Source: Ostreococcus lucimarinus (lineage: Eukaryota). Taken from it: a stretch of DNA of 64,000 nucleotides. The notes below the pieces were generated by a model. It searched no databases. It had not been told where the DNA came from and saw nothing but the letters and a program-made list of their open reading frames with translations. The translations under genes were made by a program, and so were the position numbers. This document shows positions 5,457 through 45,854 of the stretch, one piece after another. The stretch lies in NCBI GenBank assembly GCA_000092065.1, contig CP000582.1. One strand, written 5' to 3'. Every line of letters begins with the position of its first letter. Position 1 is the stretch's first letter.

Positions 5457-5893
5457 GTCGGCGATCGGTCCGCGCGTCAGAGTGATTGACCTCGATCGAT
5501 CTTTCCCCGAGATCGATCGATCGACGGTGCGAGGTTCGTTGAATTTCGATGACCCAGGATTCGACCGACAGACCGAGCCCGCGCCTGCCGACGGCGACGT
5601 CCGCACACCCGCGCGACGATGTTCACCGTCTCCGCCCCCACGCACGCGAGCCTTCGGGCGTTCAAGCCGAACACGGTGCGTGCGAATGAATTCGTCGATC
5701 GCGCGCGCGCGATGGCGCGACGACGCGCGACGACGCGACGACGCGACGACGCGTCGCGATGCGTTATCGGGGCGCGACGCGCGGAGGGTTTCGGAAAGAA
5801 TTCGAACGCGACCGGACGCGCGAGACGCGGCGTGGACGTCGAGCGCGGGCGCGGGGACGCGCGTTAAAAAATCATGCGCGCGGTGCCGCCGTC

Positions 5894-18536: not shown

Positions 18537-19892
18537 CTAGTCGCTAAAACCGTACTTTTCGAGCGTTTGCCCGAGCGGGGCGATGAGAATTTGCTTTTTG
18601 CGGAGACGGAATTCTACGGCGAGGGCGGTTTCGGGGGACACGTTCGGGTCGGCGAGCGCGGCGACGTCGTCTTTGATTTTGGTGCGAAAGCGGCCGCCGA
18701 CGAGCAACGCGCGGCATCGAGAGGCGACGACGTCTAACCACGGAATACCGAGAACATCATCGCACGCCTCGATCAATTTTTCGTCGACTGAGTCCACCTT
18801 GATCTTCACGCGCGCGTCGTCGCCGAAGACGTCGCGTAGGCGCGCCCGCGTGGTCGCGTCGAGGTCCCGCCTGAACTCGTCGGCGACGTGCGCGACCAAT
18901 TCGTCGACGTTTTCGAAAATAACGAACGTGTCGTTGACGTTGGTACCCCTCGGGATGAAACCGAAATACATCAACCACACGTCGTTAGGGAACGAGCCGT
19001 AGGAAATTAAAATTTCCTCGCCCGCTTCCACGGTTTCGCCATCCGGGTCGACGACGAGCTCGAAAAACTTGTCCATCGTCGACGACGGCGCTATCTCTGC
19101 TATTTCTTCCGTCGCAGCCGCTCCCTGACACGTCTCCGGCGACGTCACCACGCGCACGATGGCGTTAAAGCGCGCGGCGTCGTGATTACACATGTCCACG
19201 CCCGGCACCAACAGTCGCGTCGCTCGCTCCGCCGCGCCGTCTCGCCGCGTGAACACTCTCGAGTGCACCACCGCGGTGGCCCACTTCAAATCCTCGACCG
19301 TCGCCCCGATCGCGGCCAATCGCTCGCCGTACGCCTCGCGCGCGCGCTCGTGCGCTCGCCGCACGGCCAACGCCTCGTCGACGACGCTTTCGTCTTCGAT
19401 TTCCCGCAGCGCTTCGTCGTCGAAATCCAACGCCGGCGTCTTCGGCGCCGGTCTCGGCAATCGCGTCAACCACGCCGCGCGTTCGTTCGACTCTCCCTCG
19501 CTCAGTTCTTCCAAGAGCGTCATCGCCATCGCGGACGACCACCGCGCGTCGTCGTCGCCGTCGTCGTCGCCGCTCGCGCTCGCGCTCTCCACCACCAACC
19601 CCCAGGGCACGCGCAGCAGCGTCTCTCCCGGCGCCAGATCCCGCACCGCCTCGACGCCGCGCGTCCCGAACGCGCGTCCGCGCTCGGTCAGCGCGATGCG
19701 CGTCGCCACGCCGTCGTCTTTCGTCGCGCGCGCCAACCACCGCGCGAAGTCTTCGTCTTCGTCTTCGTCTTCGTTCGCGCTCGCGCGCGCCCTCGCCCGC
19801 GCGCCGCGCGTCGCCGTCGCGCGTCGTCGTCGCGCCGTCGCGCGCGCCGCGCCGGCCGCGCCCTCGGCCGCGCGCGGCGCCGCGCGCGCCAT
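18537..19892 (-). CDS. SET-domain protein lysine methyltransferase, Rubisco-LSMT-like.
   Basis: The SET motifs are GETLLRVPWGLVV, VDMCNHD and GEEILISYGSFPNDVWLMYFGFIP. The real start is probably the internal ATG (MARAAPRAAEG...). The ORF-track start at 20333 is a GTG inside the neighbouring gene. Confidence 0.75.
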   Translation of the reverse strand: MARAAPRAAEGAAGAARATARRRRATATRGARARARASANEDEDEDEDFARWLARATKDDGVATRIALTERGRAFGTRGVEAVRDLAPGETLLRVPWGLVVESASASGDDDGDDDARWSSAMAMTLLEELSEGESNERAAWLTRLPRPAPKTPALDFDDEALREIEDESVVDEALAVRRAHERAREAYGERLAAIGATVEDLKWATAVVHSRVFTRRDGAAERATRLLVPGVDMCNHDAARFNAIVRVVTSPETCQGAAATEEIAEIAPSSTMDKFFELVVDPDGETVEAGEEILISYGSFPNDVWLMYFGFIPRGTNVNDTFVIFENVDELVAHVADEFRRDLDATTRARLRDVFGDDARVKIKVDSVDEKLIEACDDVLGIPWLDVVASRCRALLVGGRFRTKIKDDVAALADPNVSPETALAVEFRLRKKQILIAPLGQTLEKYGFSD

Positions 19893-41872: not shown

Positions 41873-42837
41873 TCACTTTTGGCCGAACAAAGACTTGAAC
41901 GCCTTGATGGCGTTGGTGTTGATGAGCGGCTCGTCGAACTTGTCCATGAGCTCGGTGAATTCGGGCTGCTTTTGCACGAATTCCAAGCTCGGGTCGGTGC
42001 GAATCTTGCGGTAGTCGATCCAACCCGCGGACATGCATCGCTTGAGCGCGAGCAAGGATTCATCCGCCTTGCCGAGCTTGGAGAAGCAGCACGCGATGTT
42101 GTACTGAGCGACCTTGTAGATCTCCGTCGTCTTGGAAAAATCGTCACCCATGTAGTTCTTCGGTTCCAACGCCGCGACTTCCTCAAAGACGATTAACGCG
42201 TTGTCGAAATCCTTGCCGTTGTAAAGCTCGATGGCTTCGTCGAACATGTCTAATCTCTGGTTCTCCAACTCGCGCTTTTTGGAGTAGTTGTTCATTTGTT
42301 GTTCCTTCGTCCCGGCGCCGTAGTTACCACCCGCGCGTTCGCTCTTGAACGCCGAGCTCTTTTCGGTTTGTTGAAGCGCCGACAAGTCGCCGTCCATGTC
42401 CGTCATCTTCAAGTAGATGTCGCCGTTTCTATTCTTAATCGCGTACATCACCTGTCCGTACGACTCAGCGCCCCAGATCTCATCCCCGAACGACGCGCTC
42501 ACGGCTTCAATCTTATCGCCGACCTGGAATCGGTCGTAGATCGGGTCCGTGGGGACGAAGACGACGTACGCGCCGCCGTCGTTGCCTCGGTTAAACTTCA
42601 GCTCGATCGGCTTCGGGAGCGTCGCTGTGTGGAAAGGAAACGCGCGTTTCATCGTCAGTCATCGCGCGCGAACGAACACACGAAAGTGGCTCTGGGCGTA
42701 CCTTCGTACGTGTCCCCCTTGGCCGCGCGCACGACGGAGAACCGGCGCGCGATGTGCGAGTGACGTCGATCCTTGGTGAAAGTGGATAACGACGCCGTGT
42801 TGAGCGCCGCGGCGCGCTGGGCGTGCAGAGCGGACAT
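41873..42837 (-). CDS. PDZ plus TPR domain protein (MET1/TEF30-like photosystem II assembly factor) with a plastid transit peptide. Two exons: 42692..42837 and 41873..42624.
   Basis: Exon 2 has a PDZ-like region (GAYVVFVPTDPIYDRFQVGDKIEAVSASFGD) and TPR repeats (YNIACCFSKLGKADESLLALKRC). Exon 1 (MSALHAQRAAALNTASLSTFTKDRRHSHIARRFSVVRAAKGDTYE) is a classic S/T/A/R-rich transit peptide. It ends at a G|GTACGC donor. The intron has the branch site GACTGACGAT and the acceptor CACACAG, and the frame is preserved. Confidence 0.65.
42625..42691 (-). other. Intron (67 nt) in the MET1-like gene.
   Basis: Minus-strand donor GTACGC, branch ATGACTGACGATG 28 nt upstream of the acceptor CACAG. Phase 1 is preserved. 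Confidence 0.6.
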
Positions 42838-44980
42838 AAATGCGTGCGTGTGCGTACGCGCGGGGCTCGTTCGCGCGGAATAGGCGCGCGCGGTGACGAC
42901 GGAGCGTCGAGAACTGTGGAACGAGGCGCTACGGCGACGAGATAAAGCGCGAGCGGCGGCTGAGAAGCGAGGGATGACTTTCGCGCGTTGTGTGCGTTAC
43001 AACGAACGACGAGCGATGGTGGCCTAGGTGTGAGGAAAAAGTAACGTCGTGTGGTCAGCGTCTCGAATGCGAGCAAACGCGAGATTGGATTTAGTCCGTA
43101 ATTTAGTGACGTTCGCGCCGTAAGGATGCGCGCTCGTCGTGGAGTCATTGGACCACAAACCGGTTGTCTGGCCGGCGTCCCGCGAGCGGGACAAGATTGA
43201 TGTGCGCGACGGAAGTAAAAAGATCATCTCCACCGTTAAGTAAGGAGCGCCTTAGGCAAAGTCGCGGGAGGTTTTGTCGAAAAAGCGTCCTCGGTTGGAC
43301 TCGGACGTTTGGCCGTCGGAACGATTCGGCGGCGGCGGTGCGGTGTACAAAGCCTCGGGAAGTTTGAAGCAATGTAATTAGTGTTCATTCACGACGTCTT
43401 AAGAAACGAGTTGTTCGTCATCGACTTCGTACGCCACACCTCGCACACCCGGTATCGTTCGTTCAATCAAACATTCGTCCGCAGGAAGAAAATCTCGCGA
43501 CGAACCAAAGCTCATTACTTCTTAGAGGTTGATTAAGCCTCACGGTGAAATCAGCATCGGTTTTTGGAATCACGGCAAAGCGTTCATCGCGAGCGAGAAA
43601 ACGTAAGCAATCGTCGAGAGATGTCGCGCTGACGATTGAGCAGGCGACTGTGGATAGCAGCCACCTACTCACCCATGTCAACGCTGTCGGCTGTACCTTA
43701 GAACGACGGGAGAGCAGCACATGCGGCCGAAGCCTGATCAGCCCTCTGCTTTGTCAAGGAAACGAGGACGAGCAAACCGAATCGATAGAACGCGCCGTGA
43801 CACGTACCTGGCGTTCACGACCCTCAATGGTAGTTTTTGCCATGCCTGCGAATGAAAGAAAAGAGGCGTAAAGGTGAGTCTTGCGCGCGTCGTCGAACGA
43901 ATGTGGTGGAACTACGGAGGAATTTCGACGACTTGTAAACGCCAAAGCTCCACGGAGAGCCCATCCCCTTTTAATCTCGCCTTCGCTCAAAACTGACACG
44001 CGGAATTGAATCGCGGGGGTTCTAATTCCTCGATTCTCTGCGGGCAGCTCTGCAGCGAAGGCTTTCGCCGACGAAAAATACGTCGCGTCGTTCGTCGTCC
44101 CGTCCCCGAGCGAGCACCCGTTCACGACTCCCACGGCGCGATCGCCTCAGTCGAAAGATGGTGAATTATGTTTTGATTCTTCACGGTGTTCAGCCAGTAT
44201 GGACACGTTTACATCCCAGACGTCGGCCGCTTCGATCCCGGGCGTTGCTCTCGCGCGAAGGCCGCCGACGACGCCGACGACGACGCGCCGAATGTGAAAT
44301 CGAATAAGGGCGCGCGTCGAGTCGATTCCCCCGACGCGCGCGTGACAATGATCGACCTCTCTATTCACTCTCGGGCGCGTTAGGTTTCCCTTCGGACGCG
44401 CGGCATGGCGGTTATCAGCCGCCCCGCGACCCGTACACACAAACGCCCGCGCGCGCGAGAAAAACAACCGAAACAACCAACACCAACAATCCCTCTCCAC
44501 CGCGTCTCGGCCGATATGCTCAATTGACGTCACGACGACGCGCGCGGTTTTATTCCGGGTAACTAATCCGGCCGCGCGCGCGTCTCAGTAGCCAAGCGTA
44601 AAAGTTTTCGTCATCGACGTTCGGGCGATTGATGTTCGCGTGGCGTGATTCTTCGCGTCGAGGTCTCGCGCGTCGTCGTCGACGCGCGTCGCGTCGCCGT
44701 CGCGCGCGTCGCGTTCGCGCGCGTCGTCGCGCGCATCGCGTCGTCGTCGCGCGCACCTCGCGTCGCGTCTCGCGCGTCGTCGCGCGCGCGAAGTGCGGCG
44801 CGCGCGCGCGCCGGCGGCGGCCCAATAAACCACGCACAATACGACACCACGGGCGATTTTCGCTCGAAAATGCCGCGCGCGATAAATCGAGGGTTTTGCG
44901 CGAGGTGTCGCGCCCCGGCGAGGCGGCGATCGCGCGTCGTCGATCCGCCTTTTAGCGACGCGCGACCGTCCGTCGACACC

Positions 44981-45854
44981 ATGGGGGTGCGTCTCGCGAC
45001 GCTCGACGCTCGACGCGATGCGCTCGACGCGCGCTCGACGCGCGCCGCGGATCTCGCGTCGCGCGCGCGACGCGCGACGACGACGACGACGCGACGCGAA
45101 CGCGACGCTAGGGCTTTGAGCCCTCGCGCGCGCCGTCGCGGAAGACGACGATGCGCGAGCGCGCGTCGACGACCGCCGACGCGCGAGACGAGTGAAAACG
45201 TAGAAGAAATACTGACGAATCGCGCGCGAGTCGTTCGCTCGATAGGCTTACAAGTATGTGGAAGAACTTTGGAAGAAGAAGCAATCCGATGTGATGCGCT
45301 TCTTGCAGCGGATTCGCGTGTGGGAGTACCGGCAGTTGCCGTCCATCTGCCGCGTGACGCGACCGACGCGACCGGATAAGGCTCGACGACTTGGATACAA
45401 GGCCAAGCAAGGTTTCTGCATCTACCGCGCGCGCGTGCGCCGCGGTGGACGCAAACGACCGGTGGCGAAGGGTCAGGTGTACGGGAAGCCGGTGCACTGC
45501 GGTATCACGAAGTTGAAGTTTGCGCGCAACTTGCGATCGGTCGCGGAGGAACGCGCGGCGCGACGATGCGGCGCTTTGCGAGTGTTGAACTCGTACTGGT
45601 TGAACCAAGACTCGGTGTACAAGTACTATGAGGTGATCATGGTGGACCCGATGCACAAGTGCGTGCGCAACGACCCGCGCATCAACTGGATCTGCAACCC
45701 GACGCACAAGCACCGCGAAATGCGCGGTCTCACGTCCGCGGGGCGCAAGTACCGTGGCTTGCACGGCAAGGGTCACAACTTCACCAAGTCTCGTCCGTCC
45801 AAGCGGGCCACCTGGAGAAACAACAACCGCTTGTCCTACCGTCGCTACCGTTAG
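44981..45854 (+). CDS. RPL15: 60S ribosomal protein L15 (eL15). Two exons: 44981..44986 and 45246..45854.
   Basis: Exon 2 begins [20 protein letters not shown], which matches human RPL15 residues 3 onward (AYKYIQELWRKKQSDV). An in-frame stop lies immediately upstream of it. Exon 1 is ATGGGG (M-G), followed by the donor GTGCGT. Confidence 0.9.
44987..45245 (+). other. Intron (259 nt) in RPL15, placed after the second codon.
   Basis: Donor GTGCGT, branch ATACTGACGAAT about 33 nt upstream of the acceptor GATAG. The splice recreates the conserved MGAYKY N-terminus. Confidence 0.85.

Follow-up and report, generated by a model that had tools for sequence, protein, structure and literature searches.

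Vertebrate snoRNA host genes of the UHG (SNHG1) and GAS5 type have 5'TOP promoters and give rise to spliced, polyadenylated RNAs, in which the snoRNA introns are conserved, with one snoRNA per intron, while the exons are short and poorly conserved and lack a conserved ORF. In plants, Chlamydomonas and Ostreococcus tauri, intronic clusters carry several snoRNAs of both classes within one intron, and these are released by nucleases after splicing. Closest to the locus analysed here is snoRNA cluster 2 of O. tauri, composed of Ot-CDsno19, HAsno20, CDsno21, HAsno22, HAsno23, CDsno24 and HAsno25 (Bousquet et al. 2020, PMC7671301). All seven RNAs were detected in O. tauri by RNA-seq as uncapped RNAs, and Ot-CDsno19 and Ot-CDsno24 were probed by northern blot (PMC7671301). 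The cluster was recorded as intergenic ('cl 2 - IG'), a polycistronic precursor was invoked and no splicing was reported; BLASTN orthologs were already recorded in O. lucimarinus and O. mediterraneus (PMC7671301). A T2T O. tauri preprint of 2026 brings no further information about the mode of expression of the cluster. As the cluster was published for O. tauri and its BLASTN orthologs were on record, the main result presented below is confirmatory.

The gap between the MET1-like and RPL15 genes

The window analysed comprises 64,000 nt of the O. lucimarinus contig CP000582.1. Between the ATG of a MET1-like gene (42837, minus strand) and that of RPL15 (44981, plus strand) lie 2143 nt, in agreement with the ORF-free, lower-GC gap of ~2.1 kb pointed out by a preceding sequence-only reading. 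The GC content across ~43100-44000 is 0.50-0.56, compared with 0.60-0.78 in the flanks. No tRNA was found in a scan of this island. By eye, TGGGCC (site II-like) and AAACCCT motifs are seen in the promoter region shared with RPL15, with no obvious conservation in other lineages.

Alignment of the island with O. tauri and four other Ostreococcus lineages revealed discrete blocks of 75-91% nucleotide identity separated by divergent spacers. The island very probably constitutes a snoRNA gene cluster on the minus strand, that of the MET1-like gene, with expression probably taking place through the putative spliced host discussed below. Eight snoRNAs are found there, four of box C/D (A, C, E2, F) and four of box H/ACA (B, D, E1, G), which bears out the earlier view of a functional minus strand in a non-coding region; what that reading had missed was the snoRNAs in the putative introns, which are the conserved functional content. 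The snoRNA order is kept in the five other Ostreococcus lineages, and two Micromonas and two more distant Mamiellales lineages contain subsets of the blocks in unchanged order. Across lineages, guide sequences are invariant, changes in stems are compensatory, and the rRNA targets match. The low GC content and the absence of ORFs are explained by selection acting on RNA structure and guide sequences rather than on codons. Thus, what looks like a gene desert in this very compact genome is dense non-coding cargo, made of eight rRNA-modification guides.

A covariance-model search for non-coding RNA, suggested along with the sequence-only reading, supplied the first lead. At gathering thresholds Rfam gave no match in the whole window, while a permissive E-value scan returned the snoZ196 match of snoRNA C; beyond it, no island snoRNA appeared in that scan at E<0.1. 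Four other permissive matches (mir-639, mir-m107-1, P31 and MIR3454) were discarded as compositional, since they fall in GC-rich, CGCGTCG low-complexity DNA around the RPL15 start.

Judged by position and sequence, the island is the ortholog of O. tauri cluster 2. The nhmmer and blastn matches are colinear with the published O. tauri coordinates after subtracting a locus offset of 871035, and these coordinates agree with our blocks within a few nucleotides. On the flanks, synteny extends to the genes for TPR/MET1-like, methyltransferase, ketoacyl-synthase and AMP-deaminase proteins. The two clusters agree in snoRNA order, in orientation with respect to the MET1-like/TPR gene, in box architecture and in rRNA targets, with sequences 75-88% identical, the neighbouring O. 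tauri proteins being 81-85% identical in amino acids to those of this species. Moreover, five target predictions made independently here coincide with the published ones. There are also differences. RPL15 abuts the cluster head-to-head here, whereas O. tauri has a GT47 gene in between, and Ot-CDsno24, published as one RNA, is split here into two units, E2 and F, so that eight snoRNAs correspond to the seven annotated O. tauri RNAs. The cluster is therefore real and functional but mostly ordinary, matching one experimentally described in O. tauri. New to this analysis are the finding that its order is maintained as far as Micromonas, the 'orphan' HAsno22 included, and its partial conservation in a Bathycoccus-like lineage; the BLASTN table of PMC7671301 reports absence there.

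A hidden conventional multi-exon protein-coding gene was also considered, as O. tauri annotations put CDSs of 162, 186, 52 and 81 aa in the orthologous region and the window itself has ORFs of up to 128 aa there. Such a gene is extremely improbable. The longest ORFs of the island measure 126-128 aa, and a Pfam search with five island ORFs yielded zero matches; gaps and indels in the alignment do not follow codons; the conserved positions are those of RNA stems and guides, with compensatory substitutions in the stems. The O. tauri authors themselves consider CDSs overlapping some intergenic clusters 'probably wrongly annotated' (PMC7671301). The O. tauri gene models illustrate how annotation built on ORFs overlooks such loci and also populates them with spurious small CDSs.

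Features of the snoRNA cluster and its putative host RNA, in 5' to 3' order of the minus strand (positions in the window)
Feature	Positions	Strand	Remarks
Putative host exon 1	44757..44860	-	3' end at 44757; 5' limit approximate; deduced from sequence
snoRNA A, box C/D	44503..44620	-	Ortholog of Ot-CDsno19, coordinates match
snoRNA B, box H/ACA	44290..44450	-	Ortholog of Ot-HAsno20, SNORA70-like
snoRNA C, box C/D	44142..44223	-	Ortholog of Ot-CDsno21; snoZ196/SNORD32A/snR39/At-U51 family
snoRNA D, box H/ACA	43899..44066	-	Ortholog of Ot-HAsno22 ('orphan')
Putative intron 1, 3' end	43846..43878	-	Branch-like CTCAC 43878-43874, pyrimidine tract, acceptor CAG/ 43848-43846
Putative mini-exon 2, 38 nt	43808..43845	-	ATG at 43843; encodes MAKTTIEGRERQ
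Putative intron 2, 5' splice site GTACGT	43802..43807	-	CGCCAG/GTACGT, exon end 43808
snoRNA E1, box H/ACA	43619..43762	-	Ortholog of Ot-HAsno23; SNORA21/snR10-like; ACA 43624-43622
snoRNA E2, box C/D	43505..43578	-	5' part of Ot-CDsno24; SNORD61/snoU61-like
snoRNA F, box C/D	43349..43427	-	3' part of Ot-CDsno24
snoRNA G, long H/ACA-type RNA	43087..43268	-	Ortholog of Ot-HAsno25
Putative intron 2, 3' end	43024..43059	-	GCTGACC branch region 43059-43053, pyrimidine tract, TAG/ 43026-43024
Putative terminal exon 3	42980..43023	-	TGTAA 43001-42997; 3' end approximate

Guide sequences and predicted rRNA targets

Targets were searched and numbered on the Ostreococcus rDNA unit recovered in this work (locus L039). 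The box C/D snoRNAs would guide rRNA 2'-O-methylation, at Cm2680 and Am704 of the LSU and Um1348 and Um1383 of the SSU. For such a guide, which abuts D or D' and spans at least 10 nt, the rRNA nucleotide expected to be methylated pairs with the fifth position upstream of the box. In snoRNA A, with boxes C (AUGACGA), D' (CUGA), C' (GUGACGU) and D (CCGA, CUGA in its relatives) and an internal GC stem, the sequence immediately 5' of D', ACGCUUGGCU, is invariant in the alignment of lineages and forms 10/10 Watson-Crick pairs with LSU 2677-2686, predicting Cm2680; 25S C2668 is the published target of Ot-CDsno19 (Bousquet et al. 2020, PMC7671301). SnoRNA C has a C box GGGAUGU (GUGAUGY in Micromonas) and a D box CUGA, and its UCACCAUCUUUCGA-CUGA is invariant across 9 lineages. 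Its guide makes 18 Watson-Crick pairs with LSU 701-719, from which Am704 is predicted, and the published target of Ot-CDsno21 is 25S A694, the authors assigning that RNA to snoZ196/SNORD32A/snR39 (PMC7671301). As its match to Rfam RF00134 (42.7 bits, E 9.7e-5) does not reach the gathering score of 55, snoRNA C is filed as RF00134-like by function, that is, by guide and target, and not by Rfam score.

SnoRNA E2 carries boxes C (GUGAUUC), D' (CUGA) and a non-canonical D (AUGA), and matches Rfam snoU61 (RF01170) weakly, with 20.4 bits against a gathering score of 55 and an E-value of 0.39. Its invariant CCUCUAAGAAGU forms 12 Watson-Crick pairs with SSU 1345-1356; the predicted Um1348 is the same site as the published target of Ot-CDsno24, 18S U1348 (PMC7671301). 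Both C and E2 share guide elements and homologous target sites with their families, RF00134 (SNORD32A/SNORD51, yeast snR39/snR59) and RF01170, respectively, and differ from them by degenerate C and D boxes and sub-threshold Rfam scores. SnoRNA F has boxes C (AUGACGA), D' (CUUA), C' (UGAAUGA) and D (CCGA), D' and D both reading CUGA in Micromonas. Across 7 lineages its AUUGCUUCAAACUUCC does not vary, and the guide forms 14 Watson-Crick pairs and one G-U pair with SSU 1379-1393. The Um1383 predicted from it would be an additional, newly proposed methylation site on the 18S rRNA. The published northern probe for Ot-CDsno24 falls in the F part and detected a band of ~75-80 nt (PMC7671301).

Terminal stems are present in the C/D snoRNAs, with compensatory changes in E2 and A, and several boxes depart from consensus (RUGAUGA for C, CUGA for D) at 1-2 positions, the GA dinucleotides being kept. 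The guide scores of C and F lie above every shuffle (for F, 28.5 against a shuffle maximum of 24.5). Those of A and E2 do not exceed the shuffles on score alone, but both guides coincide with published targets. For the secondary guides (upstream of D in A, and upstream of D' in C, E2 and F), which are mostly unconserved, no target above background was detected.

The box H/ACA snoRNAs would guide pseudouridylation, with SSU U1597/1598 and LSU U2698 and U2767 as candidate sites. A home-made pocket scanner with widened boundaries was used for these RNAs, and it recovered the published sites of B and E1. As the scores of the invariant pocket strands do not exceed those of shuffled controls, the H/ACA targets are given only as candidates. 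SnoRNA B folds into two hairpins with a hinge AGAGUG and an ACA at 44295-44293, and RNAalifold on 8 sequences revealed compensatory changes at 8 pairs. Its invariant pocket strands UGUGUGUAC and AAGGG fit SSU U1597/U1598, the same sites published for Ot-HAsno20 (PMC7671301). Counted by eye, the pocket-to-box spacing of hairpin 1 is 16 nt in O. tauri and ~20 nt in the window, the usual range for H/ACA guides being 14-16 nt. SnoRNA D shows a hairpin-hinge-hairpin fold with H box AGAUUA and ACA at 43904-43902; ANANNA is present in 6/6 Ostreococcus lineages, the ACA is invariant, and the Micromonas orthologs have compensatory stems, with double changes at 22 pairs. The pocket scan of rRNA gave no convincing target for it.

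SnoRNAs E1 and G were each compared in 10 lineages. In E1, 97% of the cells are paired and 13 pairs show double changes; in G, these values are 93% and 19. Observed values were reached by 0/500 shuffles in both cases, and slid-partner controls made the covariation collapse. The candidate targets of E1, LSU U2698 and U2767, are the same as the published 25S U2686 and U2755 once a numbering offset of +12 is applied. SnoRNA G has an H box ACAUCA, a branched 3' domain and a 3' box AAA, for which O. tauri has ACA. Its hinge was read in eight lineages, all of which have ANANNA. The hinges of D and G are perfect ANANNA in each lineage read, whereas B and E1 read ANANNG or ANANCC. In B, D and E1, the ACA is followed by 3 nt up to the end of conservation.

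Splice and poly(A) signals around the snoRNAs

The minus-strand donor and acceptor proposed by the sequence-only reading at ~43816 and ~43024-43060 are both present, the former at 43808/43807 and the latter with its last nucleotide 186 nt upstream of the MET1-like ATG. Both look genuine and would bound one intron. Their positions are kept in six Ostreococcus lineages, and finding the signals at the same relative positions in these lineages places them beyond chance. Among the spacers, that between D and E1 alone has a donor-like hexamer in 6/6 Ostreococcus lineages, the others having one in at most 2/6. A branch-like motif followed by a pyrimidine tract and YAG is found after snoRNA G in the 10/10 lineages examined. 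Upstream of this intron, CT[CG]AC, a pyrimidine tract and CAG occupy the position of the intron 1 3' end in 6/6 Ostreococcus lineages. A further donor, GAG/GTGCGC, is located at 44757/44756, and in each of the nine lineages in which snoRNA A was found, a GTGCG[CTA] motif precedes it by ~10-180 nt.

On the plus strand, the 12-mer ACGTACCTGGCG (43802-43813) had alternatively been read as the 5' end of a U1 snRNA gene, and the palindrome TGACGTCA (44525-44532, first placed at ~44528) as a CRE in the RPL15 promoter. The resemblance and the palindrome are both there, but we attach next to no probability to this reading. ACGTACCTGGCG is the reverse complement of the 5' splice site, and likeness to the U1 5' end is inherent in such a site; it lies in a spacer that is unconserved between lineages, and Rfam gave neither U1 (RF00003) nor any other snRNA at E<=10 on both strands of 42600-45300. 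As for TGACGTCA, it is inside snoRNA A, at the C' box; the RPL15 ATG is ~450 nt away, and conservation is limited to RUGA (GTGATTAG in O. tauri, ATGACGCC in Micromonas).

The leader exon with a uORF that had been proposed at this donor stood in part. In every Ostreococcus lineage an acceptor precedes, and a GT[AG]NGT donor follows, the position of the putative 38-nt exon, but the sequence in between is unalignable, varying from 23 to 49 nt, and the uORF, of 20 codons after splicing, is not conserved.

Downstream of the last acceptor there is a TGTAA, which corresponds to UGUAA, the poly(A) signal of Ostreococcus (PMC6413133). It lies +22 nt past the acceptor here; the distances in four other lineages are +38, +51, +42 and +24 (5/6 Ostreococcus lineages in total), for a background of ~0.0005 per nt. 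In the window, TGTAA occurs within 150 nt downstream of 18/80 long ORFs, where ~4.6 would be expected. The positional conservation of donors and acceptors, the unconserved 38-nt exon and the UGUAA therefore suggest a short, three-exon, non-coding host RNA, each of whose two introns would hold four snoRNAs. In such a model, RNA polymerase II would start in the ~200-bp region shared head-to-head with RPL15 and produce a non-coding, polyadenylated RNA with exon 1 ending at 44757, exon 2 at 43845-43808 and a terminal exon of ~40 nt from 43023, with its UGUAA at 43001. Intron 1 would carry A-B-C-D and intron 2 E1-E2-F-G. After excision, the introns would be cut between snoRNAs and trimmed to the ends protected by the snoRNPs, and the spliced exons would lack a conserved function.

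The layout of several snoRNAs per intron is the same as in the intronic clusters of plants, Chlamydomonas and O. tauri. However, for the intronic clusters known to date from O. tauri the hosts are protein-coding, whereas the Ostreococcus host of this cluster seems to be a tiny non-coding RNA. With the UHG/GAS5 type it shares conserved introns, unconserved exons and the lack of a conserved ORF (blocks of 75-91% identity against an unalignable exon 2), but four snoRNAs per putative intron replace the single one of those hosts.

The published model for O. tauri cluster 2 differs from this one. It supposes an independent intergenic polycistronic gene processed by nucleases only, in which the splice-like signals would be incidental. 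Plant snoRNA clusters do operate in such a manner. Moreover, the spacers between snoRNAs within each putative intron lack splice signals, so that nuclease processing between snoRNAs is needed under any model. We nonetheless consider this explanation unlikely, because three sets of splice signals hold their position in six Ostreococcus lineages despite unalignable spacers and exon, and because the acceptor after G recurs in 10/10 lineages, two of which have an Nsp1-like ATG shortly past it. The modest new point made by the splice and poly(A) signals is that their conservation would imply expression from an intronic, non-coding host over a simple intergenic polycistron.

Last exon of the putative host in the Mamiellales

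The sequence-only reading had the leader exon spliced onto the MET1 transcript. The snoRNAs would then reside in 5'-UTR introns of the MET1-like mRNA, a possibility that we find rather improbable. The MET1-like gene is on the same strand, and the last acceptor lies upstream of its ATG at a short distance in the window and at ~260 nt in M. pusilla. In addition, the cluster is apparently in the 5' leader of an Nsp1-like gene at L013 and L016, so an arrangement with a protein-gene leader exists in the group. Against splicing onto MET1 stand the UGUAA found 22-51 nt past the acceptor in 5/6 Ostreococcus lineages and the unconserved sequence of uORF and mini-exon. In other genera, different genes intervene between the cluster and the MET1-like gene, an opposite-strand one at L016 and L018 and the same-strand Nsp1-like gene at L013, so that the cluster was not linked to MET1-like ancestrally.

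For these reasons a non-coding host is preferred in Ostreococcus. On the sequence comparison, it is rather likely that two intron-borne sub-clusters of four snoRNAs are carried by a tiny spliced, polyadenylated, non-coding host, with swapping of the host gene across the Mamiellales. In two distant lineages, the acceptor after G lies 24-29 nt upstream of the Nsp1-like ATG, a distance that leaves no room for a terminator and a promoter, and splicing is therefore implied in both. The introns of the cluster are apparently kept across the Mamiellales while the last exon differs, an apparent change of host gene between genera that is also new; if true, host genes would have been swapped around a set of snoRNAs that stays the same. 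The last exon seems to be free-standing in Ostreococcus and to end at UGUAA, in the Bathycoccus-like lineage it seems to be the 5' leader of the Nsp1-like nucleoporin gene, and in one Micromonas lineage it appears to run into another ORF.

Conservation and identity of the island

The start codons of the MET1-like/TPR gene (42837, minus strand) and of RPL15 (44981, plus strand) are separated by 2143 nt, within which GC content falls to 0.50–0.56 (~43100–44000) versus 0.60–0.78 in both flanks. All the sequence features listed for this island by the sequence-only reading were found in the window. Its ORFs reach 126–128 aa at the longest, and none of them matched Pfam.

Orthologous loci were compared from O. 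tauri (L001, L002), four more lineages of Ostreococcus (L003–L012), two lineages of TARA and marine metagenome assemblies that are more distant and richer in AT (L013/L014 and L016/L017, putatively Bathycoccus-like), Micromonas pusilla CCMP1545 (L015) and a second lineage with the same gene order as the latter (L018/L019, putatively Micromonas). Because the proteins flanking the island are 81% (TPR protein) and 85% (PPDK) identical to those of O. tauri, with closest matches of 98–99% in marine metagenome contigs, the window belongs to a species of Ostreococcus distinct from O. tauri. Comparisons with blastn and MAFFT placed the island among the best-conserved DNA of the region, in discrete blocks of ~70–260 nt with 75–91% identity separated by divergent or unalignable spacers. 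The order of these blocks is kept in Micromonas and in the distant lineages, as detected by nhmmer, not every block being found in each lineage; block D, missed there by nhmmer, was picked out by eye and then verified in an alignment.

Four of the blocks (A, C, E2 and F) each combine D' and C' boxes and a terminal stem with a C-box variant close to the 5' end and a D box close to the 3' end; in each, an element of 10–18 nt, the same in all lineages, lies immediately 5' of a D or D' box. The other four (B, D, E1 and G) each adopt a hairpin-hinge-hairpin arrangement with an ANANNA-type hinge and an ACA three nt before conservation ends. RNAalifold pairs with compensatory double changes numbered 8 in B, 7 in D (22 when Micromonas was added), 13 in E1 and 19 in G. 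By formal pair counts, 97% of cells were paired in E1 and 93% in G, falling to ~40–50% when the partners were slid, and the covariation of E1 and G was reached by none of 500 shuffles. A permissive Rfam scan matched the box C/D family snoZ196/R39/R59 at 44139–44225 (minus strand; 42.7 bits against a gathering score of 55; E 9.7e-5) and, weakly, snoU61 at 43508–43578. The island is a real, functional and well-supported snoRNA cluster.

Coordinates of the snoRNA blocks and putative introns, with the corresponding O. tauri cluster 2 members (PMC7671301)
Feature	Position	Strand	Class or content	O. tauri member
A	44503-44620	minus	box C/D	Ot-CDsno19
B	44290-44450	minus	box H/ACA	Ot-HAsno20
C	44142-44223	minus	box C/D	Ot-CDsno21
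D	43899-44066	minus	box H/ACA	Ot-HAsno22
E1	43619-43762	minus	box H/ACA	Ot-HAsno23
E2	43505-43578	minus	box C/D	Ot-CDsno24 (with F)
F	43349-43427	minus	box C/D	Ot-CDsno24 (with E2)
G	43087-43268	minus	box H/ACA	Ot-HAsno25
Intron 1	44756-43846	minus	contains A, B, C, D	
Intron 2	43807-43024	minus	contains E1, E2, F, G	

Other readings of the island were rejected. For a protein-coding gene, there is no Pfam match and conservation tracks RNA structure. The same permissive scan found no U1 or other snRNA, and the plus-strand 12-mer that had suggested a U1 gene is the reverse complement of a minus-strand donor, that is, an inverted 5' splice site lying in a non-conserved spacer. Likewise, the TGACGTCA palindrome at 44525–44532, previously read as a CRE, is the C' box region of A, in which only RUGA is conserved.

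The O. tauri annotation places small hypothetical CDSs over the cluster (L001:4776–5298, plus; L001:5542–5700, minus; L002:4417–5093, plus; L002:5371–5708, minus), of 162, 52, 186 and 81 aa and devoid of Pfam matches. As gene models they are almost certainly spurious; CDSs overlapping some intergenic clusters of this species were considered probably mis-annotated by Bousquet et al. 2020 (PMC7671301).

Comparison with O. tauri cluster 2 and rRNA targets

Our central finding is confirmatory, since this cluster has already been described in O. tauri. Among the 131 snoRNAs catalogued in that species by RNA-seq and northern blots (Bousquet et al. 2020; PMC7671301), cluster 2 spans positions 875245–876770 of chromosome 2, and its coordinates, after the locus offset, coincide with our blocks. 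All seven of its RNAs are uncapped and expressed in O. tauri, and BLASTN orthologs were reported for 7/7 in O. lucimarinus and 6/7 in O. mediterraneus (PMC7671301). What remains new is the inferred intronic expression from a non-coding host, conservation over a wider phylogenetic range, the prediction of one more methylation site and an apparent swapping of hosts between genera.

As target reference we used the complete SSU, 5.8S and LSU unit of contig L039, delimited by Rfam. This was one of five rDNA-bearing contigs obtained by scanning metagenome contigs with an 18-mer that we take to be the Ostreococcus-specific 18S probe OSTREO01. The guide of C forms 18 Watson-Crick pairs with one mismatch at LSU 701–719 (predicted Am704), and that of F 14 Watson-Crick pairs plus one G-U at SSU 1379–1393 (predicted Um1383); both scored above all shuffled guides. 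The guide of E2 (12 Watson-Crick pairs at SSU 1345–1356; predicted Um1348) and the invariant 10-mer of A (exact pairing at LSU 2677–2686; predicted Cm2680) did not exceed shuffles on score alone. Pocket searches for H/ACA RNAs are intrinsically weak and their scores were not above shuffles, including those of the top candidates, which use invariant pocket strands (SSU U1597/1598 for B; LSU U2698 and U2767 for E1). Given an LSU numbering offset of +10 to +12, each of the published targets, namely 25S C2668, A694, U2686 and U2755 and 18S U1597/U1598 and U1348 (PMC7671301), has its counterpart among these independent predictions.

The extra site, 18S U1383, is missing from the published target table. 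As published, Ot-CDsno24 is 208 nt long, and F forms its 3' part. F carries C, D', C' and D boxes and a terminal stem of its own, together with a 16-nt guide that is invariant and directed at this position. The northern band of Ot-CDsno24, of ~75–80 nt (PMC7671301), was obtained with a probe that falls within F, and its size fits F being a separate snoRNA.

The published work classes Ot-HAsno22 as an orphan, and its BLASTN table shows none in Micromonas (PMC7671301). We found clear Micromonas orthologs of this RNA, our D, at L018:6749–6910 and L015:8377–8535, with compensatory changes in both hairpin-1 stems. Its conservation with invariant elements (CUGCAGA, GACGUAGAACAC and UUUUGA) argues for a conserved target, for which the best candidate, LSU U1965, is weak.

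An additional C/D-like element of ~110 nt (GAUGAGC...CUGA...GAUGAA...CUGAC) was observed in the Micromonas C–E1 spacer (L018:6950–7400, L015:8560–8800), in two copies in L018 and one in L015. It has no Ostreococcus counterpart, and is possibly a lineage-specific, duplicated snoRNA.

Putative host RNA

The published study labelled cluster 2 intergenic and polycistronic (PMC7671301). On the minus strand of the window, a donor (CGCCAG/GTACGT) ends an exon at 43808, preceded by an ATG at 43843, and an acceptor region (GCTGACC, pyrimidine tract, TAG) lies at 43059–43024, 186 nt upstream of the MET1-like ATG. The sequence-only reading had proposed these signals for a leader spliced onto MET1; they are not noise, and their positions are kept among Ostreococcus lineages. 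In all six of these, the D–E1 spacer holds a CT[CG]AC branch motif, a pyrimidine tract, CAG, an unalignable stretch of 23–49 nt and a GT[AG]NGT donor, while donor-like hexamers occur in at most two lineages for every other spacer. Moreover, a GTGCG[CTA] motif is present ~10–180 nt upstream of A in 9/9 lineages where A was found, and G is followed by a branch motif, a pyrimidine tract and YAG in the ten lineages examined. These positionally kept signals define two putative introns, separated by a 38-nt exon in which neither the sequence nor the uORF is conserved.

In the window, TGTAA occurs 22 nt after the last acceptor; in four other Ostreococcus lineages this distance is 24 to 51 nt, against a background of ~0.0005 per nt. 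UGUAA is the documented poly(A) signal of Ostreococcus (PMC6413133). Of 80 long ORFs in the window, 18 have it in the 150 nt that follow them (~4.6 expected). The most economical reading of these signals is that the host would be a short three-exon polyadenylated non-coding RNA with its snoRNA cargo in the introns. Such a host would be analogous to vertebrate UHG/GAS5, differing in its plant-style multi-snoRNA introns.

Neighbouring genes and promoter region

The cluster occurs independently of the MET1-like gene. In L013 and L016, the ATG of an Nsp1-like FG-nucleoporin (MSGFSFG...; L013:6298–6330, L016:6429–6455) comes 24–29 nt after the last acceptor, and in these putatively Bathycoccus-like lineages the cluster seems to be located in the 5'-leader introns of a protein-coding gene. 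In L016, an opposite-strand 350-aa ORF, called by a prokaryote-style gene caller, lies between the cluster and the MET1-like gene. In L018, a 168-aa ORF has its ATG 52 nt after the last acceptor, and an opposite-strand amidotransferase gene comes next.

Both distant lineages and five of six Ostreococcus lineages have RPL15 head-to-head with the cluster; in O. tauri a GT47 gene intervenes, and Micromonas lacks the arrangement. A promoter common to RPL15 and rRNA-modification guides, if true, would make sense. Site II-like and telo-box-like motifs are characteristic of ribosomal-protein and snoRNA promoters in plants. The region that RPL15 has in common with the putative first exon of the host (44810–44900, minus strand) contains TTATTGGGCC (TGGGCC site II-like) and AAAACCCTCGA (telo-box-like), whose conservation in other lineages is not obvious.

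By eye, a tRNA-like sequence (GGGGGCAGTAGCTCAGATGGTAGAGCGCTCGCTTAGCATGCGAG...CCA) was seen at L018 ~5800–5880, ~350 nt upstream of A. The sole ARAGORN call in the whole window, an unusually short 66-nt tRNA-Gly (anticodon ACC; 19651–19716, minus strand), is unrelated to the cluster. Finally, degenerate CGCGTCG/CGACGCG repeats with a GC content of 0.72–0.74 lie on either side of the RPL15 start (44640–44800 and 44990–45160). Their only Rfam hits, miRNA-like, were rejected as spurious; the repeats fill the first intron of RPL15, which starts directly after ATGGGG at 44987.
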